Shown: one piece after another, positions 7,147 through 45,565 of the stretch
Layout of the letters: every line of letters begins with the position of its first letter
Position numbering within the stretch: the first letter of the stretch is position 1
NCBI GenBank assembly: GCA_020137815.1
Contig: CM035350.1
Location: 1,364,001 to 1,428,000, forward strand
Direction: 5' to 3'
Length of the DNA stretch: 64,000 nt
From: Hormiphora californensis
Taxonomy: Eukaryota; Animalia; Ctenophora
Notes under the pieces: generated by a model
What the model was told of the DNA's origin: nothing
The model's database searches: none
What the model saw: only the letters and a program-made list of their open reading frames with translations
Made by a program: the position numbers and the translations under genes

Positions 7147-9009
7147 TTAAAAATTCAATGATTCATCAATGGTAGAGCTTCCCAGACGGGGTTTTTTAAC
7201 AAAAGACACAGTTAGTTTGGAAGGTACTCTATCAATTTCCAGCAGACAGAGAGTGTTTGGTTTGTTTTGGTTGAAGTAGACCCCAGGAGCGTATAGGGTG
7301 ACTTGAGGGCCGGCTTCTGGCCAATACCGACCTAGATTGAACCCGTTCAGAATTACAAAGCCATGACCCCAGCCGCTGGGGTCAAAGAAAGTGTCCAGGA
7401 ATTTCGTAGGACCTTGAAACTGTCCACAAAACAAGGCCGGCAGTAGAGTTTGGAGCTGGTCTTCAGATTTATTTTGAGAAAATATCTCCTTACCATTTGG
7501 GTCAAGCACCCAAACATAGGCATATTGCACGGGCTGTCCATTTACCAGGATCTTCTGAGTGATTCCCTTGTAGTCAGATCCCATGTATCGGCCATGATTT
7601 ACCCTTCCCAGACTCTCCACCAGCACCCTAATCTCAGCGGCTGGCCGGCTGCCAAGATCGATCGTACCGTTAGCCTGGTTCCTTCTATCAATAGTGCCCA
7701 CAGGGTAGCCATCCAGGAAGATGGTTGCCCGGTCGTGTACGTTGTACAGGGAGATGTTGTGTAGAACCACCTCAGACATTTTAGGTAGTACATACCAAAT
7801 AAACCCACCAGACACGCCAAACAGTTCCATAGTCACTGGGAGGTTGATGGGGCCCTTTTTATCCCCCATCTCCCACAAACTACCAACCCTCTCCAGTCCA
7901 ACCCCTGATTTCCCCCACTTTACTGAGTGAGGGGGCACTGGTCCGGGCGGTAGGGTCCTGTACTTTTGGATGACCTTTCTAATGGCCCAATATTTAGGAG
8001 TTGTGTCCCCGGCCTCTGTAAGAACTGCGTCGTAGTCGTATGAAGTGACGTAACTAAAATAGTCGAAACTATCATGGTCCATGGCACCGTTAGTGTGGCC
8101 AAAGTTGGTACCTCCCTCAAACATATACAAGTTTACACTGGCATTGAGAGCTAACATTTCGTCAAGGCGGGAAGCAACTGCCGATGCACTGACATTGGCG
8201 TGTTTTTCATCTCCCCACTGATCAAACCAGCCAGTCCAGAATTCTGCATTGATGAGGGGTCCGTGGGGCTGGTACTTTCGTAGCATCTCGAATTGGTGGT
8301 GGGGAATCTTATCTGGACCAAAGTCTAGCGCCTTCAGCATCCCTGGCAAATTGCCACATTCCAGTCTAACCACGTTTTTGTTGTCCAGAGTGTAGTAAAT
8401 GACATCTGGTCCTAGGTACTTCTGGTTTTCGTCCAACAAGAACTGTAGGTATTTCTTGTCACAGTTTCCTATTCCGGATATTCCATATTCGTTCTCGATT
8501 TGAACGGCGATGATGGGGCCTCCATTACGATAGAGAAAGGGTTCCACCATGGGTAGAAGGACGCTAAACCATTTGGTGATGGCATCCACATAAGGCTTGT
8601 TGTAAACTCTGAACTCAATGTTGGGCTTGTTAAGAAGCCAATAGGGAAGCCCTCCAAACTCCCACTCTGCACAGATGTACGGACCGGGTCGTAGGACCAC
8701 GTTAAAACCCATCTGGTGAGCGAGGGTGAGGTAACTGACAAGGTCAGCCCCGCCCTCAAAGTTGTAGACGTCTTCCTGGGGCTGGTGAACGTTCCACGCC
8801 ACATACGTCTGGAGGGTGTCCAGACCAGCCAGTCTCATCTTGTTGAGTCTGTCAGCCCAATACTGAGGTGGAACTCTAAAGTAGTGCATTCCTCCCGAGA
8901 TGTATCTGTAGGGTTGACCGTCCTTCAGGAATCTATCATTCTCCCAGTCCACCGTTATGTTACCCCCACTCACAGAGCCCACCAGCATCGCCAACAGGAG
9001 TAAAATCAT
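7147..9009 (-). CDS. GLB1: Intronless GH35 beta-galactosidase (GLB1-like), secreted or lysosomal
   Basis: 620-aa ORF with signal peptide and the motifs YISGGMHYFRVP, LRPGPYICAEWEFGG, IIAVQIENEY (acid/base Glu), NAEFWTGW (nucleophile Glu), TSYDYDA and NLGRYW. Confidence 0.95.
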   Translation of the reverse strand: MILLLLAMLVGSVSGGNITVDWENDRFLKDGQPYRYISGGMHYFRVPPQYWADRLNKMRLAGLDTLQTYVAWNVHQPQEDVYNFEGGADLVSYLTLAHQMGFNVVLRPGPYICAEWEFGGLPYWLLNKPNIEFRVYNKPYVDAITKWFSVLLPMVEPFLYRNGGPIIAVQIENEYGISGIGNCDKKYLQFLLDENQKYLGPDVIYYTLDNKNVVRLECGNLPGMLKALDFGPDKIPHHQFEMLRKYQPHGPLINAEFWTGWFDQWGDEKHANVSASAVASRLDEMLALNASVNLYMFEGGTNFGHTNGAMDHDSFDYFSYVTSYDYDAVLTEAGDTTPKYWAIRKVIQKYRTLPPGPVPPHSVKWGKSGVGLERVGSLWEMGDKKGPINLPVTMELFGVSGGFIWYVLPKMSEVVLHNISLYNVHDRATIFLDGYPVGTIDRRNQANGTIDLGSRPAAEIRVLVESLGRVNHGRYMGSDYKGITQKILVNGQPVQYAYVWVLDPNGKEIFSQNKSEDQLQTLLPALFCGQFQGPTKFLDTFFDPSGWGHGFVILNGFNLGRYWPEAGPQVTLYAPGVYFNQNKPNTLCLLEIDRVPSKLTVSFVKKPRLGSSTIDESLNF

Positions 9010-9152
9010 TGCAACTTGTGTAACTACAGTAGGGTGTTAGATTTAACTGAGATTAAATAATGGCCAAACTTCATGCAGGGACAATTCACATGCTCGCCTA
9101 AAAGTTAAAATAGGGAACCTCGAATGACAAACGCCAAAAATGTAACCATTTT

Positions 9153-11025
9153 CTAAAAGTCAAAATTGTTCACTGTGTTTCCCTGGCCTAAATTGGACTT
9201 CCCTACAAAAGACACAGTTAGTTTAGAAGGTACTCTATCAATTTCCAGCAGACAGAGAGTGTTTGGATTGTTTTGGTATAAGTAGACTCCAGGAGCGTAT
9301 AGGGTGACTTGAGGGCCGGCTTCTGGCCAATACCGACCTAGATTAAACCCATTCAGAATAACGAAGCCATGACCCCAGCCGCTAGGGTCAAAGAAAGTGT
9401 CCATGGATTTCGTAGGACCTTTAAACTGTCCACAAAACAAGGCCGGTACTATTACAGGGGGCTGTTTTTCAAACTTATTTTGAGAAAACCTCTCCTTTCT
9501 AGTTGGGTCAAGCACCCATACCTGGGCATAGTGAATGCGCTGACCATTCACCAGGATCTTCTGAGTGATTCCCTTGTAGTCGGATCCCATGTATCGACCA
9601 TGATTTACCCTCCCCAGACTCTCCACCAGCACCCTAATCTCAGCAGCTGGCCCGCTGCCAAGATCGATCGTACCATTAGCCTGGTTCCTTCTATCAATAG
9701 TGCCCACAGGGTATCCATCCAGGAAGATGGTTGCCCGGTCGTGTACGTCATACAGGGAGATGTTGTGTATGGGCATCCCAGTCCATGGTATAACATACCA
9801 AATAAACCCACCAGACACCCCTAACGGTTCCATAGTCACTGGGAGGCTCATGTAGCCCTGTTATCCCCCATCTCCCACAAACTACCAACCCTCTCCAGTT
9901 TAACCCCTGATTTCCCCCACTTTACTGAGTGAGAGGGTACTGGTCCGGGCGGTAGGGTCCTGTACTTTTTGATGACCTTTCTAATGGCCCAATATTTAAG
10001 GAGTCGTGTCCCCGGCCTCTGTAAGAACTGCATCGTAGTCGTATGAAGTGACCCTAGTAGTTGTAAACATAGCCATCTTTACTCATGGCACCGTTAGTGT
10101 GACCAAAGTTGGTACCTCCCTCAAACATATACAAGTTTACACTGGCATTGAGAGCTAACATTTCGTCAAGGCGGGACGCCACGGCCGATGCACTGACATT
10201 GGCGTGTTTTTCATCTCCCCATTTGTCAAACCAGCCAGTCCAGAACTCGGCATTGATGAGGGGTCCGTGGGGCTGGTACTTTCGTAGCATCTGGAATTGG
10301 TAGTAGGGGAATCTTATCCGGACCAAAGTCTAGCGCCTTCAGCATCCCTGGCAAAGTTGCCACATTCCAGTCTAACCACGTTTTTATTGTCCAGGGTGTA
10401 GTAAATGACATCTGGTCCTAGGTATTTCTGGTTTTCGTCCAACAAGAACTGCAGGTATTTCTTGTCACAGACATCAGTCCCAAACCCGGCGTACTTCGTT
10501 CTCGATTTGAACGGCGATGATAGGGCCTCCATTACGATAGAGAAAGGGTTCCACCATGGGTAGAAGGACGCTAAACCATTTGGTGATGGCATCCACATAA
10601 GGCTTGTTGTAAACTCTGAACTCAATGTTGGGCTTGTTAAGAAGCCAATAGGGAAGCCCTCCAAACTCCCACTCTGCACAGATGTACGGACCCGGTCGTA
10701 GGACCACGTTAAAACCCATCTGGTGAGCGAGGGTGAGATAACTGACAAGGTCAGCCCCGCCCTCAAAGTTGTAGACGCCTTCCTGGGGCTGGTGAACGTT
10801 CCACGCCACATACGTCTGGAGAGTGTCCATACCAGCCAGTCTCATCTTGTTGAGTCTGTCAGCCCAATACTGGGGTGGAACTCTAAAGTAGTGCATTCCT
10901 CCCGAGATGTATCTGTAGGGTTGACCGTCCTTCAGGAATCTATCATTCTCCCAGTCCACCGTTATGTTACCCCCACTCACAAAGCCCGCCAGCAAGAGAA
11001 GAAAGGTAAGGCCTAGTCGTGACAT
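9153..11025 (-). pseudogene. Second tandem intronless GH35 beta-galactosidase, frameshifted (pseudogene or consensus errors)
   Basis: MSRLGLTFLLLLAGFVSGGNITVD start at 11025. Colinear with 7147-9009, but split by several 1-bp indels between about 9850 and 10500. Confidence 0.8.
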
Positions 11026-11182
11026 GGCTGCATGAAATAGACAAATGAGTAGAATAGGGAAGGGAACGTGTGGTGGTATCGCAGAAAAACAGGGCAATGT
11101 ACAAAGGGAAGATGAATGGAGGCAAATCAGAGAATACACTACGCTGAACAAACAGAAGCAAACAGAAGCTGCACTGCCAGAC

Positions 11183-11186
<4 letters not shown>

Positions 11187-11254
<68 letters not shown>
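11187..11254. repeat. (GA)n microsatellite
   Basis: Pure GA run. Confidence 0.95.
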
Positions 11255-11258
<4 letters not shown>

Positions 11259-11668
11259 AGCGATACAATTACATGGAGTTGTAGCGCTATCTGCACGAGT
11301 TGTAACTCAATTTACCCCTCCCCTCACCTGATACCTGTATTCTGATGGACCCTATTGGCTAGCAAGCATGTCTCGTGACCCTGCCATGCCTGCTTGGACC
11401 CTTATCAACAATGAACAACTTGGTCACCAAGGCATTTTATCGAAGCAGGTTTCAAATTACACACACCTCTCCCCTCCCCTCCATCAGTCCTGTAGCCAAA
11501 ACCGAATAACTTTTGTGAACAAATCGACAGGTTTCTAAGACATCTTTAAAAAACAAACAAACAAAATAAAACGCTCTTGGTTTATTAATTTGCAATGTGT
11601 GTGTCATGGTACATTATACAATCGTATACAAGTGTCTCTCTGTGTGTCTCTCTCGATCCATGGATCTC

Positions 11669-12311
11669 CTACTCTTCAGCAGGCACAGTCCACTTCCAGG
11701 TGGATCCCTTTTCAGGCTCTGTCTCCCCTGCACTTCCTGAGGGATGGATAGAATACATGAACCGGTCATAACATAATGTTTAATTTTAACTTCAATGGAT
11801 AATCCAGGAATTAAATTTCATAGCACGGTATAGTAACCATGGTAACAGATGTACGCACTAAACTTACTCTGCATGTACTCTTGGAAGGATAGAGGGTGTT
11901 CTCCCCGAGATCTTCGGAATGCCTGCCTTCGGAACTTGAACACCTGCCTAGGTTCCATCACCTCATTTTCATCATCCTCACTTGTTTCTGGGGAGGATAA
12001 GACGATATTATACACCTTGCATATAATACTGGGGGAGGGGATACATGACTATCGGCTGAAGGGTCAAGAGAAGGAGTTATGGTAGCTTTAGACATTTGGA
12101 AAATAGTTTGAAGCGATAGGGTTAGGTATGGAATTAGAAGGGCCAATGGAAAGTTAAACAAATCTTGCCAACTCGAATCTATGAAGCTACTGATCACATC
12201 ACATCACGGTTAGGATTTGGCATTGTATGAGTCCATGTCGTTCTTACCAATACTGCAGAGGACGGTAGAGATGATAAGCAACAGGACGGTGGCATGTCTG
12301 CAGGTAGTCAT
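11669..12311 (-). CDS. 83-aa secreted protein, peptide-precursor-like (3 exons)
   Basis: Exons 12311-12248, 11987-11868 and 11736-11669 join through phase-1 GT-AG introns: MTTCRHATVLLLIISTVLCSIETSEDDENEVMEPRQVFKFRRQAFRRSRGEHPLSFQEYMQRSAGETEPEKGSTWKWTVPAEE*. AATAAA at 11586-11581. Confidence 0.7.
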
Positions 12312-13139
12312 CTGTACTGAAACTAAAAACACACCAACACTACCCTTTCTTAAGTAGCTGTGAGGATCGAGCTAGACCTGACGTGTGATTGGGTAATAGC
12401 ACGTGATTGAGATATCGAGACAAAGGATGCAGCTCGAGGTGAGCGGTCAGTGCTAGATAGACAGAGCTACAAGATACTACGCAGATAGGTCATATCTCTG
12501 TGTGATTGCACAGTTGTTCACAAAGGATAAACCATTATTAGAAAATGACACCTCCCTACTGCAGTTCTCACCCCCGATATAGGTGATTGAAGATCATCTG
12601 CTGTAATTATAGTAAGGGAGAGAACGTACCTTTATCCCATTAGTCATTACCATACAAATATATGTGCTGTTGCGAAAGCCCCTTCTCATCTCATAGATCA
12701 TCTGTTTTAATCTCCCCCATCCATAAGATAGGAGATTAAAGCTGGAGAACACAGCTGTCATTTGCAATCAGTATATACGTACCAGTGATGAATCCTGGTA
12801 GCGACCAGTTAATCAAACCGTGTCTGCAATATTCATATCGAGATTATTGCTCACACCATTTGATAATCCCCCCCCAAGCAAGATTAAGAACTCTACTATT
12901 TTTAATCCAGCTCACATGCTCAACTGTTCCCCTACTCCTAATCGCGGAGCATAGCCACTAATAAAACTGTCGCTAGTGATGGACTTATTTCAAGGACACC
13001 GTGTTGTATGAAAACATTAAAATTCAGTCAAATAATTTCGGGGATACATTTGAAAACTAAAACTCTTTCCAGGTTTCGTTGTGGTGAATCTTTAGATAGT
13101 ATCGGACTACTAACTAGTTCGGTAAGTACCCATGTCTCA

Positions 13140-13560
13140 CATCTCAGCTCTGTCCCTGTCTCTGAGTCTGTCTTTGTCTCTGTCTTTGTCTCTGAGTCTG
13201 AGTCTGTCTTTGTTTCTGTCTCTGTCTGTGAGTCTGAGTGTATGTGAGTCTGTCTCTGTTTCTGTATCTGTCTCTGAGTCTGTCTCTGAGTCTGTCCCTG
13301 TATTTGTCTCTGTCTCTGAGTCTGTCTCTGTCTTTGTCTCGGCAGTCTCTCTGTCTCTGTCTCTGAGTCTGTCCCTGTCTTTGTCTCTGAGTCCGAGTCT
13401 GTCTTTGTTTCTGTCTCTGTATGTGAGTCTGTATGTGAGTCTGTCTCTGAGTCTGTCCCTATTTCTGCATCTGTCTCTGTGTCTGTCTCTGAATTTCTGT
13501 CGCTGTCGCTGTCTCTGTCTGTCAATGCAATTGCAAGTCTAGTGTCGCTGTCTCACTCTC
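13140..13560. repeat. Degenerate hexamer satellite (GTCTCT/GAGTCT)n
   Basis: About 420 bp of tandem tctgtc/tctgag units immediately upstream of the LINE. Confidence 0.9.
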
Positions 13561-14130
13561 AGTCTCACATACACTGACACTGCACAATCTAGTATCTGTC
13601 ATTGTCACTTGTCAGTGTTTCTGTCGGTCAGAGGCAGACATAAAGTTGCCTAGGCCTTAATTCAACAGGGTGTGAAAAAACGCCAAAGTGAGGGGCTTGA
13701 ATGTTGAGAGTCCCGAACGTAGCGCGCTGTGTTTAGATGTTTTCACTGCGTTAAACATATGCGCGGAAAGTACCCGCGCGCCTTACCTGAATTATAAAAT
13801 TTTGAGTTTTCAAATTTGCCAAATCTTTCAAAACTTCAAATTTTCAAAAAACGACTTTCTAAAAGTTCATTGTTTTGGTTTCTCTCTCGTCTCTTCTCGT
13901 TTTTCTGTCTTTTTGTTTGGGCACGCGTGGCTTAAACATAGTCACGTGCCCCGTTGCCTGAGGACCGAGGAGGATCCCTGGTGACCCTTGTCACCAGATG
14001 CTCATCACACTTTCCCGATGTTTCAAACTTTTCAACACTACTTTAAACAAATTAATTTGAGCCAATGGCTCCAATGACCACCCGATAAATCGCGGGAGAA
14101 GTAACGAACCCGTGTATCCGCCAAGACAAG

Positions 14131-15654
14131 ATGAAGAAAGACGAGAAGGAGGGAATCTTCCGAAAGAAGGAGGAACCAGTCCGCAAAGCCGTCATCTCTG
14201 AATTGGTAACAAAATCGCTCCCTGCGCACCCGCTCGCTAAAGAAGTTTTCGAGAGCTACCAACATTTCGTGGGCATTACCGAGAACCTCCTTCAATTCAA
14301 AAAGTTGGGGTTGAATGAAATTCTTTCTGCTGCGAACTTCTTGGGACTGATTGCTGACAGCGGTGAACCTGGGGGGAAGAAACGGCCGTACAAGAACCGC
14401 GAAACGCTGAGCCACAGGATCATCAAGAAAATTGAGAGCCTATTCCCGAGCGTGTGCGCCGAATGCAACTCGTCATATAAACCAATTATTGGCGATACAC
14501 CTGTCATTTCCTGTTGGACGTGCTACCGACCATCTCACGACTGTTCAGGCATGCTGGAGATTGCCGAAGATTTTGGAAAGCTGAAGAACAAATCCAATTT
14601 CAAATGGCTCTGCATGGACTGTAAAGAGATGACGAGCCTGTCCCTGAAGAAAATGCTCACACTTTTCGACATCGGCTCTTACAAAACTCTTGCGGAGACA
14701 GAAAACCCCCTGTCTGGCAATGATGATGCTTTCCATGACTCTGTGGAAGGTTTTGAGGAAAACAATGAAGGAGTAGACATCTCTGCAAAAGAGCTATCAA
14801 ATATGTCCCACTATCTGTCTCAAGTTGAGGAAAAGAAGGAGAAGGACACGCCTGACGACCCTGACAATGCCAAAGCGAAGATTCTCTGCAGGTACTTCCG
14901 GAGGGGGAATTGCCGGCACGGTACTGAAGGAACTACTCTTGTGGAAGGAAAAGTATGCCCCTTTTTACACTCCCCACCCACTGAGAAACAGGCTCAATCC
15001 CAAGGGAATGACACAAGAGGAAATGGTGCAACCCAAGCCCTAGGTGACGAGTGTGAGACATTTGTAAATTACGGCAGATGCAAGCACGGAATGAGTGGGA
15101 AAATAAAGAAAAACGGAAAAATCTGTGAAGGACGACACCCCAAGATATGCAAGAAACTGCGATCAGGTGGATTTGGAAAAAACGGGTGTACCAAGGGATC
15201 GAAGTGTGAGTACCTCCACCCTAAAGTATGTAGGGGATCTGCCTCAAAAGAAAAGGCATGTGCTGACCCTGTGTCCTGCAAGTTCTTCCATATTTCAGGA
15301 ACACGTATTTCCCACCCAAACGTACAGCAAACACAACCCAAACCGGCTGTAAAACCTGGAGCCGCCAATTATGCAGCGGTACTGGACCAAAAAGCAGAAC
15401 CAGTAACAACTGCAACTCCTGTGACAATGGATTTTCTCCAGGACCTGATCAGAGAGATGAAGGAGGGATTCTCTGCTCAGGCCCAACAAATCCAGTTTCT
15501 GACACGGTCCGTGCATTCTCGAGAAACAGGCTCTCCAATAAAGCCCCTGTTCGGAGATCTTCCAGCACCCAGCCAGGAACATCCAATCCTGGGATTCGGA
15601 GCTACCCATCCGACATATCAACCGTATCACCTCTCTCAAAGGTTTACCTACTAA
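14131..15654 (+). CDS. LINE ORF1: PHD finger plus four CCCH-like zinc fingers
   Basis: PHD: CAEC...CWTCYRPSHDC...WLCMDC. CCCH-like units: CRYFRRGNC...CPFLH, CETFVNYGRC...CEGRH, CKKL...GCTKGSKCEYLH, CRGS...ACADPVSCKFFH. Confidence 0.85.
   Translation: MKKDEKEGIFRKKEEPVRKAVISELVTKSLPAHPLAKEVFESYQHFVGITENLLQFKKLGLNEILSAANFLGLIADSGEPGGKKRPYKNRETLSHRIIKKIESLFPSVCAECNSSYKPIIGDTPVISCWTCYRPSHDCSGMLEIAEDFGKLKNKSNFKWLCMDCKEMTSLSLKKMLTLFDIGSYKTLAETENPLSGNDDAFHDSVEGFEENNEGVDISAKELSNMSHYLSQVEEKKEKDTPDDPDNAKAKILCRYFRRGNCRHGTEGTTLVEGKVCPFLHSPPTEKQAQSQGNDTRGNGATQALGDECETFVNYGRCKHGMSGKIKKNGKICEGRHPKICKKLRSGGFGKNGCTKGSKCEYLHPKVCRGSASKEKACADPVSCKFFHISGTRISHPNVQQTQPKPAVKPGAANYAAVLDQKAEPVTTATPVTMDFLQDLIREMKEGFSAQAQQIQFLTRSVHSRETGSPIKPLFGDLPAPSQEHPILGFGATHPTYQPYHLSQRFTY
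15429..15481 (+). promoter_or_regulatory. Candidate -1 programmed ribosomal frameshift signal
   Basis: G_GAT_TTT in ORF1 phase, 8-nt spacer, then hairpin cctgatcagaga (15444-15455) / tctctgctcagg (15470-15481) pairing 11 of 12. The -1 frame is open into the APE domain. Confidence 0.6.
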
Positions 15655-18651
15655 ACTGCAGGTCAATTTCACCTGCAGCTGGAGGGGAGACAAAGTGGAA
15701 ACTCCCCTACATCAAGGAGATGTATCTGTCTCCTGAAAAGCATGAACCCCCCGTCCTCGCAATGGGCATCACGGAGACATGGCTTAAGAGCTACATCTCA
15801 GACGCTCAAGTATCAGTCCCCGGATATGCTGTCCTAAGATCTGATAGGGATATAAAAATTGGCGGAGGATGTCTTCTGTACGTCAACGAGGAAATCCCTA
15901 TCACAAAACAACTATCGTGGAGCGACAATCAAACAAGCGTAGTGACTGCATTCTCAGAAGAGCATAACCTGCTACTGGGATGCGTCTACCGGCCCCCAGA
16001 CGCTCATGAATCTTCCTTTGGAGAAGCAATGAGAAAACTACAAGAGGAGATTGATAGCATCTGCAAGAATGGTGAAGAACCTGAAATAGTGTTACTTGGG
16101 GACTTCAACTTACCTCAGATGAACTGGGAAAGTCTTAACACTAAAGTCGGAGGAGTGAGAGGAAACGGACCATACCAGCAAACCGTGGAGCTGATCAATG
16201 AAAACTTTCTGGAACAAGTGGTGAAAACACCGACCAGAGGACCAAACATACTGGACATAGTGCTCACTAACACACCTGATTACTTTGTAAATGTGGAGAC
16301 TACAGAAATTAAGATCTCCGACCACCGGATGGTGGAGTGTACCCTCGCTCACAACCCCCTCGTGAGCCAAACCATAGAAAAGACAGAAGAGGACCCTTTT
16401 CGAAAGTTGAAGTTACATAACGTGGACTACAACCCTATGAAAACTAAACTATGTGAAATCGATTGGGACAAAGCCTCAGATTACTGCGACCAGGAGGAAG
16501 GGACAAATGAACAGTTCCTAGATCTTGTAATCAAAGTAGTCCTCGAAATTGCGGAGGAAACCCTCCCAGTTAAGAAGATACTGCAGAAGCCGAATAGAAA
16601 GATCAAAGAACCCATAAAAAGGAAAGCCAGGAAAATCAGGAAAAAGCTCAATCGGGACCCCGGCCCCGACCCCCAAGAGGAAAGAGAGCTTCACGAACAA
16701 CTGGCGGAACTAAACGACCAAGTGAAAGAGAGGATTATTGAAAGCCTAGACCAAGAGGAGGAGAGTGCTGTTGCTACAATCAAAGAAAATCCCAGGTACT
16801 TCTTCTCATATGCCAAAAAACTATCCAAAACAGCATCAAACATCGCTCCAATTAAAAGAGAAGACGGAACTCTTGCCACTGAGAGTGCAGAGAAAGCACA
16901 GTTACTACAGAAGCAGTATGTTCGTGTTTTTAGCGACCCTGGCAAAGTTGATGCAGAAAACGGCCTCTCCTGGACAATCGATGAACCCAAAAATATTCTG
17001 GAAGACTTCGATTTTACCCCCGAAGACATAGAGTTAGCGATGAAGGAGATAAACCCCTATGGAGCAGCCCCAGAAGGTGACATCCCTGCAAGAATTCTGT
17101 ATGAATGTCGAGCTCAGCTTGCCTACCCCCTATGGCTCCTATGGAGGCGATCGATGGATAAAGGGACAATTCCCTCCTTCCTGAAAAACCAACAAATCGT
17201 ACCAATATTCAAGAAGGGGGACAGGACCAAGGCAGCAAACTATCGGCCAGTCTCACTGACCTCTAACATAATCAAAACATTTGAAAGAGTCATGAGGAAC
17301 CAGATTGTTGTCTTCTTTGAGGAAAACAGTGTATTTCCAGAATCTCAACACGGATTCCGAAAAAATCGCAGTTGCCTGACTCAACTTATCGAGCACGTCG
17401 ACACCATACTCAAACAACTCCGAGATGGTAACGAAGTGGATGTTATATACATTGACTACGCCAAGGCGTTTGATAAGGTTGATACAAACATCCTCATAGC
17501 CAAACTCGAACGATATGGACTCCGGGGAAAAGTCCTGAACTGGATTCCGGTGCTTCTTAACTGACAGATACCAAACTGTCGTAGTGGATGGTGAACGGTC
17601 CTCATGGGAAAGGGTGCGAAGCGGAGTCCCTCAAGGAACCGTGCTTGGTCCACCACTCTTCATCGTCTATGTTGCAGACCTTGTCTCGGCAGTGCAGCAC
17701 TCCCTACCAAAAACCCTGGCAGATGACACTAAACTCATCAAAGCTATAGAAACTGAGGAATCTCAATCGCAACTCCAGAAAGATTTGAGTGAAATAGGAC
17801 GATGGTCACGAGCAAACAACATGAGCTTAAACGAGGAAAAATTCGAAGTTCTGCACTACACGCTCAATAAAACACTCTTGCTCAGACAGCTCCCATTTAC
17901 CTCGGAGCTTGACATCTACTACACCCCAGATGGGTCTGAGATCGAACCAAAACTCTGTGTACGGGATCTTGGGGTCCAATTGTCCAATGACCTGTCTTGG
18001 GATCAGCACATCGGAAACATGACTGCAGACGCCCGAAGGATAAGTGGATGGGTTCTACGTGCTTTCAAAACAAGACAGCCCAAGACAATGCTCATCCTCT
18101 ACAAAAGTCTCGTCAGAAGCAAGCTGGAATACTGCTGCCCACTCTGGGACTCGCCCAAAATCTCTGACATTATAAGTGTTGAAGCAGTGCAGAGAAAGTT
18201 CACCAAACGCATTCTTGGAATGAGCGACCTGAGCTACTGGGATCGCTTGAAAAAACTGAACTTACATTCCATGCAGCGACGTCGGGAACGCTACTCTATC
18301 ATCATGGTTTGGAAGATGGCGAACGGAAGTGCCCCTAACAACATTGGGCTGACATTCCACAATAATACAAGACTTGGAAGGAAAGCTGAGGTTCCAACAT
18401 CCCCCACCACCACACAAGTGTCTGTCGCTACGAAGTACCATAACTCCTTTGCCTGCAGAGCGGCTCGACTTTGGAATACTCTACCAAGCAACGTGAATAC
18501 GGCAGAAGACCTAGCCTCATTCAAAGTTCTCCTTGGTAAATGGCTGAAGAGATTCCCAGACCGTCCCCCGGTGACTGGATATTCTCGACAGAATAATAAC
18601 TCAATTCTTGACTGGGCACGAATAGCTTCCAGGGAGGGGGAGGCTCTATGA
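15633..18651 (+). CDS. LINE ORF2: APE endonuclease + reverse transcriptase; one 1-bp insertion near 17546
   Basis: APE motifs YLLNCRSI (upstream of the first ATG at 15720), ITETWL, VYRPP, GDFN, SDH. RT motifs NYRPVSLTS, QHGFR, DYAKAFD, GVPQGTVLGP, LADD, RDLGV. Confidence 0.9.
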
Positions 18652-18710
18652 GGAGCTGACACCTGTGCAGTATCTGCACAAAGAGGACTACAAGACTACA
18701 AGACTACAAG

Positions 18711-21700
18711 ATGTCAAGAGGATCACCATCACGATGTCAATCAACTCCAGTCACCTTACGACCTGATTCTCACCTACTCTCATTCTTTACGCCTCGTTCT
18801 GAATTCCCATCATTTGGTTCAAACGATTCCAACACTTTTGACTCTGAAATATCATTCAACAAACATTCAGAATGTCATGATGAGAGTAACGATTCGACTG
18901 ATGAGTGCATTAGAAATATCAGAAATGCTCTGTCAATTGATGCCGTGTGCTGTGAGTGCAGTGAGAAGATATACTTTGCCGAGTTCGTTAGTTGCACTGC
19001 ATGTAGCAATCTCATCCACCCACAGTGTGTCACACCAGCACAACCACCCACAAACGAGTTATCTCCAATCCCAGATTACTCACCAACCCTCTGTTTAGCT
19101 TGCTCGGATGTAAATCAGGGCCCACCACCGAGACCGCAGCTATCTCAGGTGAATTGTTGGGGAGATTTGAATGCAGAGGAGGTATTCGTGAAGCTACAGG
19201 CTCTTGCACCACTAATCAGCACCTGGGCTCCCAACTTGTTTGAGGTTCCATTTGGAGCAGTTGGCAGAGGTTTCATCGATGAACTCACTAGGCTGGCAAA
19301 CCTTTTCGCGACATCCACTGCTGCGGAGTCTTATGCATTATCAGCCCTAGTGCTAGCTCCTGCACTTCTCCTGCAGAAACCGAGCAAAAAGTCCAAGGTT
19401 GGTGGACATAAAAACCTGTTGGAGCGGAGACTTGAGCTATGGAAAAGTGGGAAATTTGATCAGTTATTCCGTGAGGCTGCTGCAATCCAGAAACCTCTGA
19501 ATTACCAATCCCCCAGTGAGGAGCGGTGTAACAAACGGTTCGTCGATCTAATGAGAAACGGACAGACCAGTGAAGCCACGGGATGGCTTGACTCTTCCAG
19601 ACACACATGTGGAGTCAAAAGCTGCACTGACGAGGTACTCCTCGACCTTGAAAAGAAGCATCCACCCGCTTCACCTATCAGCAGCAAATATGTACACAGT
19701 GACCCACCTGCCGACCACCAGCCAGTCACATTTCAGGGCATAACCGGTGAGAGCATTTACAAATGTGGTTTAAATATCAAAGGTTCAGGTGGTCCCAGTG
19801 GTTTTGACGCCTCCGGGGTGAGCAGAATCCTATGTGCAAAGAAATTCAAACAATCGTCTACGGCACTGTGTGATGCCTTGAGTTTGGTTGCCCAGAAACT
19901 TGCAACTACCGAAGTTCATGGTGACTTTCTTGCAATATTCTGCTCGTCTCGCCTGATTCCACTGGAGAAGACAGATGGAGGTACTCGGCCAATCGGTATT
20001 GGAGAAGTGTTCAGAAGAATAGTCGTCAAAGCTATTATCTTCTCCCAGCGTGTAGCGATTAAAGTTGCTGCAAACTGTGTACAGTTGGCTGCAGGGCAGT
20101 CTGGCGGCTGTGAGGCAGCCATTCATTCACTATCCGATCGGTTTGAGGAAGCTGATTGTGAGGGTGCTCTTCTGTTAGATGCAAGTAACGCCTTCAATCG
20201 CTTGAACAGAGGACTTGCGCTGCATAGTGTTGACAGACTTTGTCCCATACTTGCACAACTGTTCAACAATCTATACGGGGCACCATCACCATTGTACGTC
20301 GGAAACCAAGTGTTGATGAGCGAAGAGGGTGCCACGCAGGGCTGTCCATCTGCAATGGCAATGTACAGTATCGGCATTCTCCCCCTGATTAGTCTGGCTG
20401 ATCTCGAAGATGTACTGCAGGTATGGTACGCTGACGATGGAAATGCTGCAGGAACCATCTCGGGACTACATGAGTGGTACGAAATCATCACAACACACGG
20501 TCCAGCGTTCGGGTACCATATCAACCCCGATAAATGTGTCCTGATCGCAAAGGAGCACCACCTGGAGAAGGCACAGGAGTTATTTGGTGAGACCGGTGTA
20601 CAGATTACAACTGCTGGTGCCAGACACCTCGGTGCAGCAATCGGATCGACTGAATTCAAGACAACATTTGTTACGAACAAAGTTTCCGAATGGGTGAGCT
20701 GCCTTGAAAACCTGGTTACTGTTGCGAAAACTCACCCCCACCTTGCATATTCGAACTATGTCCGCAGTTTGAAAATGAAGTGGTCGTACCTGCAGCGAAC
20801 ACTACCTGATATAGGGCACTTGTTCCAACCTATGGAAGACATCCTGAGGCACAAGCTGATACCCCTATTTGTGGGAAAGCATATCTCGGACATTGAGAGG
20901 AGGATCCTAGCACTCCCCGTCAAGATGGGAGGTTTGGCATTGGAAAATCCGGTACAAACGGCTAATCAAGAATACAATAATTCCCGTTTTGCTACCGGAC
21001 CACTAGTGTCTCTTATCCTGGCGGAAGAGGACTGTCCAAATAACATCATGGATGCCGAGATGAAAAGCGGAAAGTTGAAGAAGAAGTGTGCCGACGCCAC
21101 TGATGAGAGGCATGCAACGGAACGTACAGATATCTTTGCAGTACTTGATATGAAGACACAGCGTGCGATGGAGCTGTGCTCCGAACCCGGTGCTTCTAGT
21201 TGGCTAACTGCTCGACCGCTGCAGAAACTGGGCCATGAGCTCAACCAGGTTGAGTTTGTCGATGCCATTCGGCTCAGATACGGCTTCCACTTCCCGGACC
21301 TGATAGGGAAATGCGGCTGTGGGGCACAAAACACCAGTGACCACGCCTTGATCTGCAAGGTTTGGAGGCTTTGATATGTGGAGACATGACCACCTTCGGG
21401 ATACCTTAGCCGATATCCTTCGGTATGCGGGATTTAAACCCGTTAACACTGAACAGCCAATGTTGCCCTGTGACGGATTCAACCTGCCAATCAGTGCAAA
21501 TATCAAAGCCGAAGCACGAATGGACATAGTCTGTCGTGGCTTATGGTCTGACATGCAGGCCAGTTTCATGGATGTACGGGTGTTCCATCCTAATGCCCCA
21601 TCCTACCTGAAGATGCCCATCACGAACCTGTATAAACAGCACCAAAATCAGAAGAAACTTGCCTATATGCGAAGGGTGCAAGAAGTGGAGCAGGGTTCCT

Positions 21701-21936
21701 TCACGCCCCTCGTATTCTCCACGTCGGGAGGTTTTGCCGGAGAAGTAGGGAAGGTTTTGGAGCGAGCGGCCAGGAAGATCTGTGACAGGCACAAGGAGAG
21801 TTACGCTGAAACCATGTCCTTCATCCGAGAAAAGACACGATTCAGTTTGTTAAGATCAACTCTTGTTGCGCTTCGGGGAACCAAGAGAAGGGTTGTCCCA
21901 GTCAGTGTGGAAGATGTAGACTTTCGAGACAAGTGA
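18711..21936 (+). mobile_element. CRE-clade retrotransposon ORF copy 1 (PHD-RT-CCHC-RLE), 1-bp insertion near 21361
   Basis: Same protein as 23218-26442, except an extra T in tgcaaggtttgg splits it into ORFs 18711-21374 and 21376-21936. Confidence 0.9.
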
Positions 21937-22089
21937 GCAGAGAGAGGGAGTATGAGAGTATGACGGTGTGTGGGTAATTTATTATAATTTATTGCTTTCT
22001 AAGAAGATTCAAGATCTGACTGTTGAGTGTGGGCACTTGGCTTGTGCCGTCAAAAGCCTTCAAACGCCTATCACACATAATAAATTTCA

Positions 22090-22535
22090 GTGGTCACTTT
22101 TAAGACATAACCTGAGTCCTGACTAACTCCTCAGAAAGGCACGAAACCTCAAAGACTCCAAACAGTTTTCGGCTGTTTATCTCTCTCCGGATCTTACGCC
22201 CTCTGAACTGAAAGAGCAAAAAGCTCTAAGGTCCACTTTGAAGCGGATACGATCAGAAGATCCTGACGGCTGCTACTTCATCCGTAATAATCTTATCCAA
22301 GTGGGATAGTTCCCCACTAACTCACCGTTATCAGAGAACCGTGCTAGGAGCAGGCAGTCTACTGCAGTCCCTTTCAAATTAAGGAAAACGAGTTGTCTGT
22401 ATACAAACTGTGTCAGTGCGGGATATAAACTGTTACTATTATTATTATTATTTTGATGTCGGTCCCAATGGAAACACTTAAGGCTCAGCAGACTCTCTGA
22501 CGGTTTGTAATCAATGTGTCTGGATACAGAATGCC
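22090..22535 (+). pseudogene. Decayed relic of another CR1-like LINE (ORF1 C-terminus and start of APE)
   Basis: 22127-22309 reads LLRKARNLKDSKQFSAVYLSPDLTPSELKEQKALRSTLK (L1/CR1-type ORF1 CTD). It continues as SCLYTNCVSAGYKL...METLK...INVSGYR, resembling CR1 APE CLYTNARS...ETWL...GY. Confidence 0.6.
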
Positions 22536-25500
22536 ACGCCCGAAGGATAAGTGGATGGGTTCTACGTGCTTTCAAAACAAGACAGCCCAAGACAATGCTC
22601 ATCCTCTACAAAAGTCTCGTCAGAAGCAAGCTGGAATACTGCTGCCCACTCTGGGACTCGCCCAAAATCTCTGACATTATAAGTGTTGAAGCAGTACAGA
22701 GAAAGTTCACCAAACGCATTCTTGGAATGAGCGACCTGAGCTACTGGGATCGATTGAAAAAACTGAACTTACATTCCATGCAGCGACGTCGGGAACGCTA
22801 CTCTATCATCATGGTTTGGAAGATGGCGAACGGAAGTGCCCCTAACAACATTGGGCTGACATTCCACAATAATACAAGACTTGGAAGGAAAGCTGAGGTT
22901 CCAACATCCCCCACCACCACACAAGTGTCTGTCGCTACGAAGTACCATAACTCCTTTGCCTGCAGAGCGGCTCGACTTTGGAATACTCTACCAAGCAACG
23001 TGAATACGGCAGAAGACCTAGCCTCATTCAAAGTTCTCCTTGGTAAATGGCTGAAGAGATTCCCAGACCGTCCCCCGGTGACTGGATATTCTCGACAGAA
23101 TAATAACTCAATTCTTGACTGGGCACGAATAGCTTCCAGGGAGGGGGAGGCTCTATGAGGAGCTGACACCTGTGCAGTATCTGCACAAAGAGGACTACAA
23201 GACTACAAGACTACAAGATGTCAAGAGGATCACCATCACGATGTCAATCAACTCCAGTCACCTTACGACCTGATTCTCACCTACTCTCATTCTTTACGCC
23301 TCGTTCTGAATTCCCATCATTTGGTTCAAACGATTCCAACACTTTTGACTCTGAAATATCATTCAACAAACATTCAGAATGTCATGATGAGAGTAACGAT
23401 TCGACTGATGAGTGCATTAGAAATATCAGAAATGCTCTGTCAATTGATGCCGTGTGCTGTGAGTGCAGTGAGAAGATATACTTTGCCGAGTTCGTTAGTT
23501 GCACTGCATGTAGCAATCTCATCCACCCACAGTGTGTCACACCAGCACAACCACCCACAAACGAGTTATCTCCAATCCCAGATTACTCACCAACCCTCTG
23601 TTTAGCTTGCTCGGATGTAAATCAGGGCCCACCACCGAGACCGCAGCTATCTCAGGTGAATTGTTGGGGAGATTTGAATGCAGAGGAGGTATTCGTGAAG
23701 CTACAGGCTCTTGCACCACTAATCAGCACCTGGGCTCCCAACTTGTTTGAGGTTCCATTTGGAGCAGTTGGCAGAGGTTTCATCGATGAACTCACTAGGC
23801 TGGCAAACCTTTTCGCGACATCCACTGCTGCGGAGTCTTATGCATTATCAGCCCTAGTGCTAGCTCCTGCACTTCTCCTGCAGAAACCGAGCAAAAAGTC
23901 CAAGGTTGGTGGACATAAAAACCTGTTGGAGCGGAGACTTGAGCTATGGAAAAGTGGGAAATTTGATCAGTTATTCCGTGAGGCTGCTGCAATCCAGAAA
24001 CCTCTGAATTACCAATCCCCCAGTGAGGAGCGGTGTAACAAACGGTTCGTCGATCTAATGAGAAACGGACAGACCAGTGAAGCCACGGGATGGCTTGACT
24101 CTTCCAGACACACATGTGGAGTCAAAAGCTGCACTGACGAGGTACTCCTCGACCTTGAAAAGAAGCATCCACCCGCTTCACCTATCAGCAGCAAATATGT
24201 ACACAGTGACCCACCTGCCGACCACCAGCCAGTCACATTTCAGGGCATAACCGGTGAGAGCATTTACAAATGTGGTTTAAATATCAAAGGTTCAGGTGGT
24301 CCCAGTGGTTTTGACGCCTCCGGGGTGAGCAGAATCCTATGTGCAAAGAAATTCAAACAATCGTCTACGGCACTGTGTGATGCCTTGAGTTTGGTTGCCC
24401 AGAAACTTGCAACTACCGAAGTTCATGGTGACTTTCTTGCAATATTCTGCTCGTCTCGCCTGATTCCACTGGAGAAGACAGATGGAGGTACTCGGCCAAT
24501 CGGTATTGGAGAAGTGTTCAGAAGAATAGTCGTCAAAGCTATTATCTTCTCCCAGCGTGTAGCGATTAAAGTTGCTGCAAACTGTGTACAGTTGGCTGCA
24601 GGGCAGTCTGGCGGCTGTGAGGCAGCCATTCATTCACTATCCGATCGGTTTGAGGAAGCTGATTGTGAGGGTGCTCTTCTGTTAGATGCAAGTAACGCCT
24701 TCAATCGCTTGAACAGAGGACTTGCGCTGCATAGTGTTGACAGACTTTGTCCCATACTTGCACAACTGTTCAACAATCTATACGGGGCACCATCACCATT
24801 GTACGTCGGAAACCAAGTGTTGATGAGCGAAGAGGGTGCCACGCAGGGCTGTCCATCTGCAATGGCAATGTACAGTATCGGCATTCTCCCCCTGATTAGT
24901 CTGGCTGATCTCGAAGATGTACTGCAGGTATGGTACGCTGACGATGGAAATGCTGCAGGAACCATCTCGGGACTACATGAGTGGTACGAAATCATCACAA
25001 CACACGGTCCAGCGTTCGGGTACCATATCAACCCCGATAAATGTGTCCTGATCGCAAAGGAGCACCACCTGGAGAAGGCACAGGAGTTATTTGGTGAGAC
25101 CGGTGTACAGATTACAACTGCTGGTGCCAGACACCTCGGTGCAGCAATCGGATCGACTGAATTCAAGACAACATTTGTTACGAACAAAGTTTCCGAATGG
25201 GTGAGCTGCCTTGAAAACCTGGTTACTGTTGCGAAAACTCACCCCCACCTTGCATATTCGAACTATGTCCGCAGTTTGAAAATGAAGTGGTCGTACCTGC
25301 AGCGAACACTACCTGATATAGGGCACTTGTTCCAACCTATGGAAGACATCCTGAGGCACAAGCTGATACCCCTATTTGTGGGAAAGCATATCTCGGACAT
25401 TGAGAGGAGGATCCTAGCACTCCCCGTCAAGATGGGAGGTTTGGCATTGGAAAATCCGGTACAAACGGCTAATCAAGAATACAATAATTCCCGTTTTGCT

Positions 25501-26982
25501 ACCGGACCACTAGTGTCTCTTATCCTGGCGGAAGAGGACTGTCCAAATAACATCATGGATGCCGAGATGAAAAGCGGAAAGTTGAAGAAGAAGTGTGCCG
25601 ACGCCACTGATGAGAGGCATGCAACGGAACGTACAGATATCTTTGCAGTACTTGATATGAAGACACAGCGTGCGATGGAGCTGTGCTCCGAACCCGGTGC
25701 TTCTAGTTGGCTAACTGCTCGACCGCTGCAGAAACTGGGCCATGAGCTCAACCAGGTTGAGTTTGTCGATGCCATTCGGCTCAGATACGGCTTCCACTTC
25801 CCGGACCTGATAGGGAAATGCGGCTGTGGGGCACAAAACACCAGTGACCACGCCTTGATCTGCAAGGTTGGAGGCTTTGATATGTGGAGACATGACCACC
25901 TTCGGGATACCTTAGCCGATATCCTTCGGTATGCGGGATTTAAACCCGTTAACACTGAACAGCCAATGTTGCCCTGTGACGGATTCAACCTGCCAATCAG
26001 TGCAAATATCAAAGCCGAAGCACGAATGGACATAGTCTGTCGTGGCTTATGGTCTGACATGCAGGCCAGTTTCATGGATGTACGGGTGTTCCATCCTAAT
26101 GCCCCATCCTACCTGAAGATGCCCATCACGAACCTGTATAAACAGCACCAAAATCAGAAGAAACTTGCCTATATGCGAAGGGTGCAAGAAGTGGAGCAGG
26201 GTTCCTTCACGCCCCTCGTATTCTCCACGTCGGGAGGTTTTGCCGGAGAAGTAGGGAAGGTTTTGGAGCGAGCGGCCAGGAAGATCTGTGACAGGCACAA
26301 GGAGAGTTACGCTGAAACCATGTCCTTCATCCGAGAAAAGACACGATTCAGTTTGTTAAGATCAACTCTTGTTGCGCTTCGGGGAACCAAGAGAAGGGTT
26401 GTCCCAGTCAGTGTGGAAGATGTAGACTTTCGAGACAAGTGAGCAGAGAGAGGGAGTATGAGAGTATGACGGTGTGTGGGTAATTTATTATAATTTATTG
26501 CTTTCTAAGAAGATTCAAGATCTGACTGTTGAGTGTGGGCACTTGGCTTGTGCCGTCAAAAGCCTTCAAACGCCTATCACACATAATAAATTTCAGTGGT
26601 CACTTTTAAGACATAACCTGAGTCCTGACTAACTCCTCAGAAAGGCACGAAACCTCAAAGACTCCAAACAGTTTTCGGCTGTTTATCTCTCTCCGGATCT
26701 TACGCCCTCTGAACTGAAAGAGCAAAAAGCTCTAAGGTCCACTTTGAAGCGGATACGATCAGAAGATCCTGACGGCTGCTACTTCATCCGTAATAATCTT
26801 ATCCAAGTGGGATAGTTCCCCACTAACTCACCGTTATCAGAGAACCGTGCTAGGAGCAGGCAGTCTACTGCAGTCCCTTTCAAATTAAGGAAAACGAGTT
26901 GTCTGTATACAAACTGTGTCAGTGCGGGATATAAACTGTTACTATTATTATTATTATTTTGATGTCGGTCCCAATGGAAACA
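22536..26982 (+). repeat. Near-identical second copy of 18029-22476 (LINE ORF2 3' end + tail + CRE ORF + downstream relic)
   Basis: 4447 bp versus 4448 bp. Differences I could see: two synonymous changes in the LINE part (GTG/GTA, CGC/CGA) and one indel. Confidence 0.95.
23218..26442 (+). CDS. Intact CRE-clade protein: PHD + RT + CCHC + restriction-like endonuclease (1074 aa)
   Basis: PHD CCEC...CTACSNLIHPQC...CLAC. RT GPSG, TRPIGIGEVFRR, LDASNAFN, EGATQGCP, WYADD, RHLGAAIG. CCHC CGC...HALIC plus RHD. RLE RMDI...FMDVRV...KKLAY...FTPLVFSTSGG. Confidence 0.95.
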   Translation: MSRGSPSRCQSTPVTLRPDSHLLSFFTPRSEFPSFGSNDSNTFDSEISFNKHSECHDESNDSTDECIRNIRNALSIDAVCCECSEKIYFAEFVSCTACSNLIHPQCVTPAQPPTNELSPIPDYSPTLCLACSDVNQGPPPRPQLSQVNCWGDLNAEEVFVKLQALAPLISTWAPNLFEVPFGAVGRGFIDELTRLANLFATSTAAESYALSALVLAPALLLQKPSKKSKVGGHKNLLERRLELWKSGKFDQLFREAAAIQKPLNYQSPSEERCNKRFVDLMRNGQTSEATGWLDSSRHTCGVKSCTDEVLLDLEKKHPPASPISSKYVHSDPPADHQPVTFQGITGESIYKCGLNIKGSGGPSGFDASGVSRILCAKKFKQSSTALCDALSLVAQKLATTEVHGDFLAIFCSSRLIPLEKTDGGTRPIGIGEVFRRIVVKAIIFSQRVAIKVAANCVQLAAGQSGGCEAAIHSLSDRFEEADCEGALLLDASNAFNRLNRGLALHSVDRLCPILAQLFNNLYGAPSPLYVGNQVLMSEEGATQGCPSAMAMYSIGILPLISLADLEDVLQVWYADDGNAAGTISGLHEWYEIITTHGPAFGYHINPDKCVLIAKEHHLEKAQELFGETGVQITTAGARHLGAAIGSTEFKTTFVTNKVSEWVSCLENLVTVAKTHPHLAYSNYVRSLKMKWSYLQRTLPDIGHLFQPMEDILRHKLIPLFVGKHISDIERRILALPVKMGGLALENPVQTANQEYNNSRFATGPLVSLILAEEDCPNNIMDAEMKSGKLKKKCADATDERHATERTDIFAVLDMKTQRAMELCSEPGASSWLTARPLQKLGHELNQVEFVDAIRLRYGFHFPDLIGKCGCGAQNTSDHALICKVGGFDMWRHDHLRDTLADILRYAGFKPVNTEQPMLPCDGFNLPISANIKAEARMDIVCRGLWSDMQASFMDVRVFHPNAPSYLKMPITNLYKQHQNQKKLAYMRRVQEVEQGSFTPLVFSTSGGFAGEVGKVLERAARKICDRHKESYAETMSFIREKTRFSLLRSTLVALRGTKRRVVPVSVEDVDFRDK

Positions 26983-27502
26983 GCTTTTAACTTTTAAGGC
27001 TACTCCTCTTCTCGTCAGCTAATTTAATGTATGATTTACATTTCCAGAAACACATAAACCCTTCAAATCTCTGTTATTACAGAAACACCCAACACATACT
27101 TAGTTTGTTGAGGGATGCTGGTGACAGTGCTCAACAGTGAACTGGAGCTTTAAAAAAATTTAAACGAGTAGTTTAAATTTGTGAATACATACCTAAATAG
27201 ACCAGAATTATACCGAAAACTGCAAGCCTACCGCCCATCTTTTGCAAGGTTGTTGAGTAACATCCAATTTACACCAACTAGCTGCATATTTTCTCACTGC
27301 TGATTACTACAACAAGTTTAGCTAGCTCTCATTGCAGGCTAAGTTTATTAGTGATGAAGTCAGTCCTGAAATTACACTGTGTATCTACTATACAGACGGT
27401 ATCTAATGACACCACTGTACTGATCTATAGTGATGAAGTTAGCACTTAGAAACAACACTGCACTGTATATCTAACACCACTGTACTGATCTAGTGATGAC
27501 CG

Positions 27503-37613
<10,111 letters not shown>

Positions 37614-45563: not shown

Positions 45564-45565
45564 AT

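Follow-up and report, generated by a model that had tools for sequence, protein, structure and literature searches.

We analysed a stretch of 64,000 nucleotides from the ctenophore Hormiphora californensis (assembly GCA_020137815.1, contig CM035350.1, positions 1,364,001 to 1,428,000 of the forward strand; hereafter the window), in which a long interspersed nuclear element (LINE) encoding an apurinic endonuclease-like (APE) domain and a reverse transcriptase (RT) runs directly into the open reading frame (ORF) of an element with a restriction-like endonuclease (RLE) that resembles the CRE clade. We find it highly probable that the LINE, which begins with the ctenophore spliced leader, is nested in the start codon of the RLE element through a single landing by target-primed reverse transcription (TPRT), with a trans-spliced RNA as the template. 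As an event of a known kind, the leader-capped LINE is a genuine variant. The original prediction, made from sequence alone, had offered three options: a fused three-ORF retrotransposon with two RTs and two endonucleases, an RLE element that targets the tails of the LINE family and borrows its promoter, and a single LINE insertion into the CRE-like element primed by tail microhomology. It is the last of these that the empty site and the GATGT duplication of the LINE bear out.

Empty site of the LINE and likely empty site of the RLE element

The order of parts on the + strand is that originally predicted, and is confirmed by ORFs, Pfam matches and sequence: ORF1, the APE-RT frames, (GACTACAA)x3, a G, and then the ATG (18711) of an RT-CCHC-RLE ORF. 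Contigs from four public runs (X1, X4, X5 and X6, from two samples, X1 and X5 being different samples) were compared with positions 13530-22620. A contig joint leads from 14016 directly to 18710, skipping a LINE of 4,688 bases (14022-18709), and the five letters GATGT fit on either side of it. In X1 a single 539-bp contig is composed of 13887-14016 and 18710-19118, with no differing letters and a depth of 198.6, and in X5, the other sample, the same joint is found at a depth of 2303. In X4 the continuation of the RLE element appears as a loose end behind 14021. Since GATGT is present at both ends of the LINE and the empty site is found in a contig, the supposed 5' untranslated region (UTR) of the LINE is that of the RLE element and the LINE is the guest. 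The duplicated GATGT contains an ATG, so the RLE ORF retains a start codon while its 5' UTR is displaced.

Three details of the original prediction change with these joints. It had found no convincing target-site duplication around the LINE, an oversight that follows from placing the LINE 5' end at 13700 rather than at 14022. It had held the RLE ORF to be without a 5' UTR of its own, which is found at 13863-14017, displaced by the LINE. And it had seen the RLE ATG as part of a degenerate fourth tail repeat, whereas the three relatives P0003-P0005 (1060-1086 aa), which cover 99-100% of the RLE ORF, begin in the same way and mark the ATG as native. As a target-site duplication, TGTCGGTC (13622 and 22457) was considered and abandoned when the contigs gave the actual joints; a search for duplications around 13700 and at the unit ends returned chance-length matches only.

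The RLE element has ends of its own. A joint from 13854 to 21995, at a depth of 16.7 in X1 and 124.2 in X4, coincides with the 8-base repeat CTTTCTAA at 13855 and 21995 and likely marks the RLE element's own empty site; without its LINE guest the element measures 3,439 bases. Around the second tail-RLE junction (23140-23300) runs X2, X4, X5 and X6, again from two samples, were compared, with 32 of 266 pieces and 24 of 67 loose-end rows listed. In X2, X4 and X5 the RLE start is preceded by the RLE 5' UTR as a loose end, and all 11 loose-end rows listed for LINE tails (23201-23218) lead into unrelated flanks, none of them the RLE start. No piece with 31 letters on both sides of the tail-RLE junction is among the 32 listed, and X6 has no cover at 23224-23235. 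To the extent that contigs allow, this is what the original prediction had named as its own refutation, with RLE copies that have their own 5' UTR (X1, X2, X4 and X5) and LINE copies that end at the tail.

Summed contig depth, which is not copy number, peaks at the 3' end of each element and falls at the tail-RLE junction. In X1 it rises from 95 to 2085 at 18394-18697, and is 264 at 18698-19001 and 5095 at 21738-22041. Peaks at the elements' own 3' ends fit two families that are each 5'-truncated separately. The two elements are mobile independently at other loci. Contigs drop rare variants and could overlook a junction present at one locus, but a multi-copy composite family is not supported.

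TPRT is an established pathway for retrotransposons that lack long terminal repeats (non-LTR elements), and we propose a history of four steps. The RLE/CRE-like element would have inserted first, duplicating CTTTCT(AA), of which both copies and a likely empty site are observed. The LINE RNA would then have been trans-spliced, so that the leader became its 5' end, as the sequence suggests. The APE of the LINE would have nicked the RLE element at GATGT and the GACTACAA tail would have primed with ~2 matching bases, a chemistry modelled on TPRT; copying would have stopped 2 bases short of the 5' end of the leader and the copy would have joined by a 2-base overlap, the duplication and the overlaps being observed. 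A 4.4 kb tandem duplication, including ~480 bases of flank, would have followed, either in the DNA or in the assembly.

There is a 2-base overlap with the target at each LINE joint. The tail microhomology of the original prediction is real but small, with 2 exact bases at the joint and target and tail alike at 7 of 12 bases. Tail microhomology is known from CR1/L2-type LINEs. The nest resembles other nested TPRT insertions in its full-length copy, short tandem-repeat tail, short duplication and 2-base overlaps at both joints, and differs in that the duplication holds the ATG of the host element, whose ORF consequently abuts the tail.

The spliced leader at the LINE 5' end

Positions 14020-14061, 42 bases in all, equal the ctenophore spliced leader as printed in PMC8527503 less the first 2 of its 44 bases, and are identical to the leader on an mRNA-type contig (L013). 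In the window the leader continues with CCAAT, whereas in a leader-RNA gene array (L022) it continues with the donor GTAAG; with no GT donor behind it, the window leader is not a spliced-leader RNA gene. The hallmarks that mark a retrocopy of trans-spliced RNA in DNA are present, with the leader at the exact 5' end, inside the target-site duplication, and a tail at the 3' end. In the public runs, summed depth over the leader stretch is very high and the loose ends to either side of it are mixed (agreement 0.41-0.47), as expected of many genomic copies in differing settings.

Metagenome contigs, which may be DNA or RNA and whose low-coverage assemblies favour repeats, were scanned with 29 bases of the leader, and 34 loci matched. 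Eight of these have at least 15 bases of other DNA upstream, and seven of the eight head LINE-type ORFs in sense. Five run into APE or APE-RT LINEs (L003, L007, L020, L021 and L034) and two into ORF1-like frames (L016 and L032); the eighth is the L022 array. Among the remaining 26 loci there are two whole LINEs (L008 and L015) and 24 without a match to the LINE proteins of the window, including L031, which has the leader and an ORF1-like frame and was left uncounted. Viral contigs gave no match to the leader. L022 carries, at 700-880, a tandem array of spliced-leader RNA genes with a 778-base period, the leader being followed by GTAAG. L032 (471-1656) and L016 start with the leader and have an ORF1-like frame, but an ORF2 is not seen in either; L032 ends in AAT repeats. 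The two may be non-autonomous LINE derivatives that carry ORF1 alone, related to the fragment at 22127-22455 of the window.

Leader-headed LINEs are found in two RT lineages that are distant from each other. In a tree of RTs with 34 of 36 rows (P0179 and P0203 left out, relatives unnamed), L007, L008, L015 and L034 group with a minus-strand LINE of the window (98/99), far from the guest, while L020 has the guest's type of ORF1. Across the two RT lineages and a third ORF1 type the leader is constant over 35-42 bases and the bases behind it differ; in L016, L020 and L032 it is followed directly by TTTTAG or TTTCAG. The minus-strand LINE is itself a second APE-RT LINE (42619-46210) with three frames (214, 251 and 730 aa). 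No leader lies upstream of it, and as its ORF1 has about half the length of the ORF1 of its leader-headed relatives it is likely 5'-truncated.

From these patterns, the leader-headed LINEs were likely copied from trans-spliced RNA. It is less likely that the leader was gained by a template jump onto free leader RNA, since such a jump would need to land precisely at the exon end. We also consider it unlikely, if worth weighing, that these LINE families acquired the leader in one ancient capture and have kept it as a fixed head that is transcribed with the element, perhaps as an internal promoter, rather than gaining it anew by trans-splicing in every cycle. As a fixed head would have it, neither the window nor any of 10 LINE-type loci has stacked relic leaders close to the leader, and a promoter role of the leader has been suggested for dinoflagellates (PMC12014239). 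However, the leader is unchanged in distant lineages, where old independent captures should have drifted, and ~30% of transposon long reads in Hydra bear a leader (PMC12220107); both points weigh against a fixed head.

Copying from trans-spliced RNA has parallels elsewhere. Leader-tagged retrogenes are well described in dinoflagellates, where, as here, a genomic leader at the 5' end marks a reverse-transcribed trans-spliced RNA (PMC12014239); here it is the LINE itself that is tagged, the leader is near-complete and no stacked relics are found. In Schistosoma mansoni six transposons have a genomic leader exon, with an assembly chimera left open (PMC5832876), and there, as in the Hydra reads, transposon RNAs undergo leader trans-splicing. 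The passages of the Schistosoma report on these transposons show no duplication and the Hydra data are RNA, whereas in the window the leader forms the precise 5' end within a duplication, and it recurs across LINE lineages. For ctenophores, a literature search whose scope excluded most subscription papers and Repbase found no paper on leader-headed LINEs, and the pertinent passages of PMC7986045 and PMC4233971 add nothing on LINEs.

Two separate elements and the alternatives to a nest

The RLE ORF has 222 relatives at E <= 1e-20 among 7991 candidates, the named ones from Mnemiopsis and Bolinopsis; viral contigs hold no relative of the protein. It is a single ORF in which an RT (RVT_1) is followed by a CCHC knuckle and then the RLE motif, as in the CRE clade. 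Residues 868-954 of its C-terminus read C-X1-C-X7-H-X3-C-X8-RHD-X20-E-X21-RMD-X15-D, and CCHC-RHD/N is present in 112 of 120 relatives. A search of solved structures with the protein alone found none, and with a profile of 121 sequences the best solved relatives are R2 RTs (E 1e-6); the RLE fold is a prediction from motifs. The label CRE, which we take from the original prediction, is presumably apt, the RT having been compared with unnamed relatives only, and membership in the CRE clade is likely on the evidence of ORF order and motifs. Compared with the SLACS/CRE1/2 consensus as printed in PMC12857005, one spacer is 8 rather than 9-10 residues, RMD stands in place of R/KPD and another spacer is 15 rather than 12-14; the rest fits. 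The element thus shares the single ORF and the RT-CCHC-RLE order of the clade (CRE1/2, SLACS, CZAR, MoTeR and FoTeR; PMC12857005, PMC4640811) and differs in spacing, in one triplet and in an N-terminal PHD-type finger. Insertion in the clade is often target-specific, into leader genes, telomeres or microsatellites; the one target observed here, CTTTCTAA, is neither a leader gene nor a telomere repeat.

The LINE guest likely belongs to the CR1 group, judging from traits of that group and of the Jockey superfamily that its sequence displays (ORF1, an APE-RT ORF2 and a tandem-repeat tail). The PHD and CCCH motifs originally predicted for ORF1 are found by regular expression, as one PHD-type cysteine pattern and three CCCH-type motifs, but the Pfam CCCH matches are weak and below cut-off and there is no Pfam PHD match. 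A PHD finger in ORF1 is common in the CR1 and L2 lineages (PMC4120745, which makes no mention of CCCH). The relatives of ORF2 are unnamed or hypothetical proteins, with named sources in Mnemiopsis and Bolinopsis; the 86% identical P0121 is a single 972-aa ORF, for which human L1 ORF2p is the best relative of solved structure. In the window a frameshift near 17545 divides ORF2 into pieces of 614 and 276 aa, and contigs of all four runs (X1, X4, X5 and X6) have one base fewer there. Likewise, an extra base at 21361, absent from public contigs, cuts the first RLE ORF to 887 aa, so that the predicted 1074-aa ORF at the junction exists in the second copy (23218-26442) and not in the first. Being absent from public contigs, these two bases are either private to the window copy or assembly errors. 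The 3' stem-loop of the original prediction did not hold up, folding no better than shuffled sequence (z -1.11; 29 of 200 shuffles as good).

Several observations weigh against a nest formed from a trans-spliced template. The empty site of the LINE is listed as a joint in only two of the four runs, with none listed in X6; the joint from 13854 to 21995 is marked 'between: not known'; and the RLE duplication surrounds the whole composite, which would fit arrival as one unit as well. Reads show no instance of the tail-RLE junction or of the tandem junction, so that the evidence for this locus is the window assembly. An X4 contig joins the LINE tail (18710) to RLE position 21811, at a depth of 312 and with 27 letters on its short side. 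Finally, trans-splicing of the window LINE is deduced from its DNA sequence. The X4 contig may reflect another nested insertion or a version of the composite with a deletion. An X1 contig (21949 to 14021, depth 43.5) joins the RLE 3' UTR to the leader and may be a leader-headed insertion in another RLE copy.

Nevertheless, it is very improbable that the composite (RLE 5' UTR, leader, LINE, RLE ORF and RLE 3' end) is transcribed and is, or has been, mobile as one three-ORF, two-RT unit by way of the RLE 3' end. That all parts lie on the same strand, that the RLE ORF keeps its ATG, that the RLE duplication (13855-62 and 21995-22002) encloses everything and that a second copy adjoins would all agree with such a unit. 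However, no bridging contig is among the 32 listed pieces from four runs and two samples, the listed LINE tails end in unrelated flanks, and in X1 the empty-site contig is unbroken where a common junction would branch in, with depth falling at the junction. The ORFs are separate, the second copy carries flank past the RLE end without a duplication of its own, and the RTs of the LINE and of the RLE element lie on opposite sides of a 100/100 branch of the RT tree. No fused longer RLE relative is found among 6903 candidates of 1881-5000 aa, a weak test that is blind to separate ORFs. Dualen has a single RT. Dualen/RandI resembles the present stretch in having both APE and RLE, but it is one element (PMC4640811), whereas here the nucleases belong to different elements, and each of these has an RT, ends and a duplication of its own.

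The recurrence of the junction at 23193-23220, noted in the original prediction, is real but not independent, as it belongs to a tandem duplicate. Units 22536-26982 and 18029-22476 are 99.93% identical over 4448 columns, with 2 mismatches and 1 gap; both substitutions are synonymous and lie within the 682-base LINE part. The duplicate takes in ~480 bases of flank past the end of the RLE element and has no target duplication of its own. This speaks more for a DNA-level event or an assembly error than for a fresh retrotransposition. After the second unit, positions 26983-27001 repeat TTAAGGCT, which also starts the 59-base spacer after the first unit and is a possible trace of microhomology-mediated repair. 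The tandem copy is more suspect as an assembly error than is the LINE insertion. That the whole nest is an assembly chimera of two repeats is scarcely credible: the junction is unseen in the listed contigs, and the single-base insertions at 17545 and 21361, missing from other copies, and the near-perfect tandem repeat do hint at assembly error, but the LINE bears the marks of a real insertion, with the same 5 bases duplicated exactly on either side of it, a full leader where it starts and a full tail where it stops.

The chance that the RLE element targets the tails of the LINE family and borrows its promoter is negligible: target and tail are partly alike, the X4 contig joins a tail to an RLE position and RLE elements aimed at transposons are known (PMC4640811), but the RLE element has ends of its own at 13863 and 21994 and a duplication that bears no relation to the tail, the position of the RLE 5' UTR ahead of the LINE makes the LINE the guest, and the empty-site contigs, with listed tails ending in unrelated flanks, largely refute it.

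The nest in its window and its possible meaning for ctenophore LINEs

Table 1. Parts of the nested elements and of the adjoining tandem unit (window coordinates).
Feature	Coordinates	Strand	Basis
RLE/CRE-like element, left target-site duplication CTTTCTAA	13855..13862	+	8-base exact match to 21995-22002; contig joint 13854 to 21995
5' UTR of RLE/CRE-like element (not of the LINE)	13863..14017	+	X1 539-bp contig; same joint in X5; loose ends in X2, X4, X5
LINE left target-site duplication GATGT, containing the original ATG of the RLE element at 14018	14017..14021	+	contig joint, 5 letters fit both sides
Spliced-leader exon (final 42 bases of 44), sharing its first 2 with the duplication; no GT donor after it	14020..14061	+	match to leader printed in PMC8527503 and to contig L013
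LINE 5' UTR, 69 bases	14062..14130	+	sequence
LINE ORF1 (507 aa) with cysteine motifs of PHD and CCCH type	14131..15654	+	regular expression; kin to L020 ORF1 (E 4e-18)
LINE ORF2 (APE and RT), opening within the end of ORF1, first ATG 15720, frameshift near 17545	15561..18651	+	86% identical relative P0121
LINE 3' UTR and (GACTACAA)x3 tail (tail 18686-18709)	18652..18709	+	other copies stop here, flanks unrelated
LINE right target-site duplication GATGT, supplying the ATG of the RLE ORF	18710..18714	+	contig joint and sequence
RLE/CRE-like ORF, first copy (PHD-RT-CCHC-RLE), frameshift at 21361	18711..21936	+	ORFs, Pfam, motifs
3' UTR and AT-rich end of RLE element	21937..21994	+	duplication at 21995 sets boundary
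RLE element, right target-site duplication	21995..22002	+	contig joint, sequence repeat
Third LINE-type repeat, fragment (ORF1 end, start of APE-like frame and TAT repeats), in the flank beyond the RLE element	22127..22455	+	protein matches
Spacer between the two tandem units, 59 bases	22477..22535	.	no match of at least 11 bases elsewhere in window
Second unit, repeating 18029-22476 in tandem (3' end and tail of the LINE, RLE element lacking its 5' UTR, flank)	22536..26982	+	99.93% identity
Intact 1074-aa RLE/CRE-like ORF of the duplicate	23218..26442	+	relatives of 1060-1086 aa cover 99-100%

In the flank behind the RLE element, 22130-22306 matches the ORF1-like proteins of L016 (E 3e-8) and L032 (E 3e-9), and in contigs other copies part from the window sequence before 22126-22130. 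Rfam gave 8 matches over 11000-30000, all below the gathering score and none within the element. On the + strand, exon-like stretches with splice signals (13073-13121 and 27515-28163) flank the nest on both sides, and 27975-28163 has a weak Pkinase match (E 7e-6); the nest may lie inside an intron of a same-strand gene. Elsewhere in the window, 3-206 holds a C-terminal piece of another RLE/CRE-like element (across 68 aa, 35% identical with the last part of the 1074-aa ORF), 7147-11025 on the - strand two tandem, apparently intronless beta-galactosidase (GH35) genes that are 92% identical, the second in two pieces, and 35615-36635 a perfect 352-base inverted repeat pair resembling the ends of a DNA transposon.

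A mobile element with RTs from the two deepest non-LTR lineages would be a major surprise; here it dissolves into a nested insertion, and a target duplication that contains a start codon is seen to be able to mimic a third ORF. LINEs normally have an internal promoter, which allows each copy to be expressed. A leader in place of the LINE 5' end removes anything upstream of it and raises the question of how such lineages persist. As the LINE copy has no outron, a need for read-through transcription, from the RLE 5' UTR or from a same-strand host gene, is predicted. Re-expression may proceed by read-through and re-splicing at the leader's AG, by a nearby acceptor, by a leader promoter or from outron-bearing source copies.

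We tentatively suggest, as a possibility still short of even odds, that several ctenophore LINE lineages have no promoter of their own and cycle by way of trans-splicing, with leader-started copies, read-through transcription from the DNA around each landing site and re-capping at or next to the leader's terminal AG. If so, the window copy, which lies 155 bases in from the RLE element's 5' end, would have borrowed the RLE promoter, the reverse of the borrowing originally considered. Ctenophore genomes are reported to hold 718 and 491 leader copies, 718 of them in one genome, and the main text of that report, in which the word 'retrotransposon' does not occur, gives no retrotransposon origin for them (PMC8527503). 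Under such a cycle many of the 718 copies would be LINE heads and not leader-RNA genes. Leader-headed LINEs are a possible explanation for the hundreds of leader copies scattered through ctenophore genomes.

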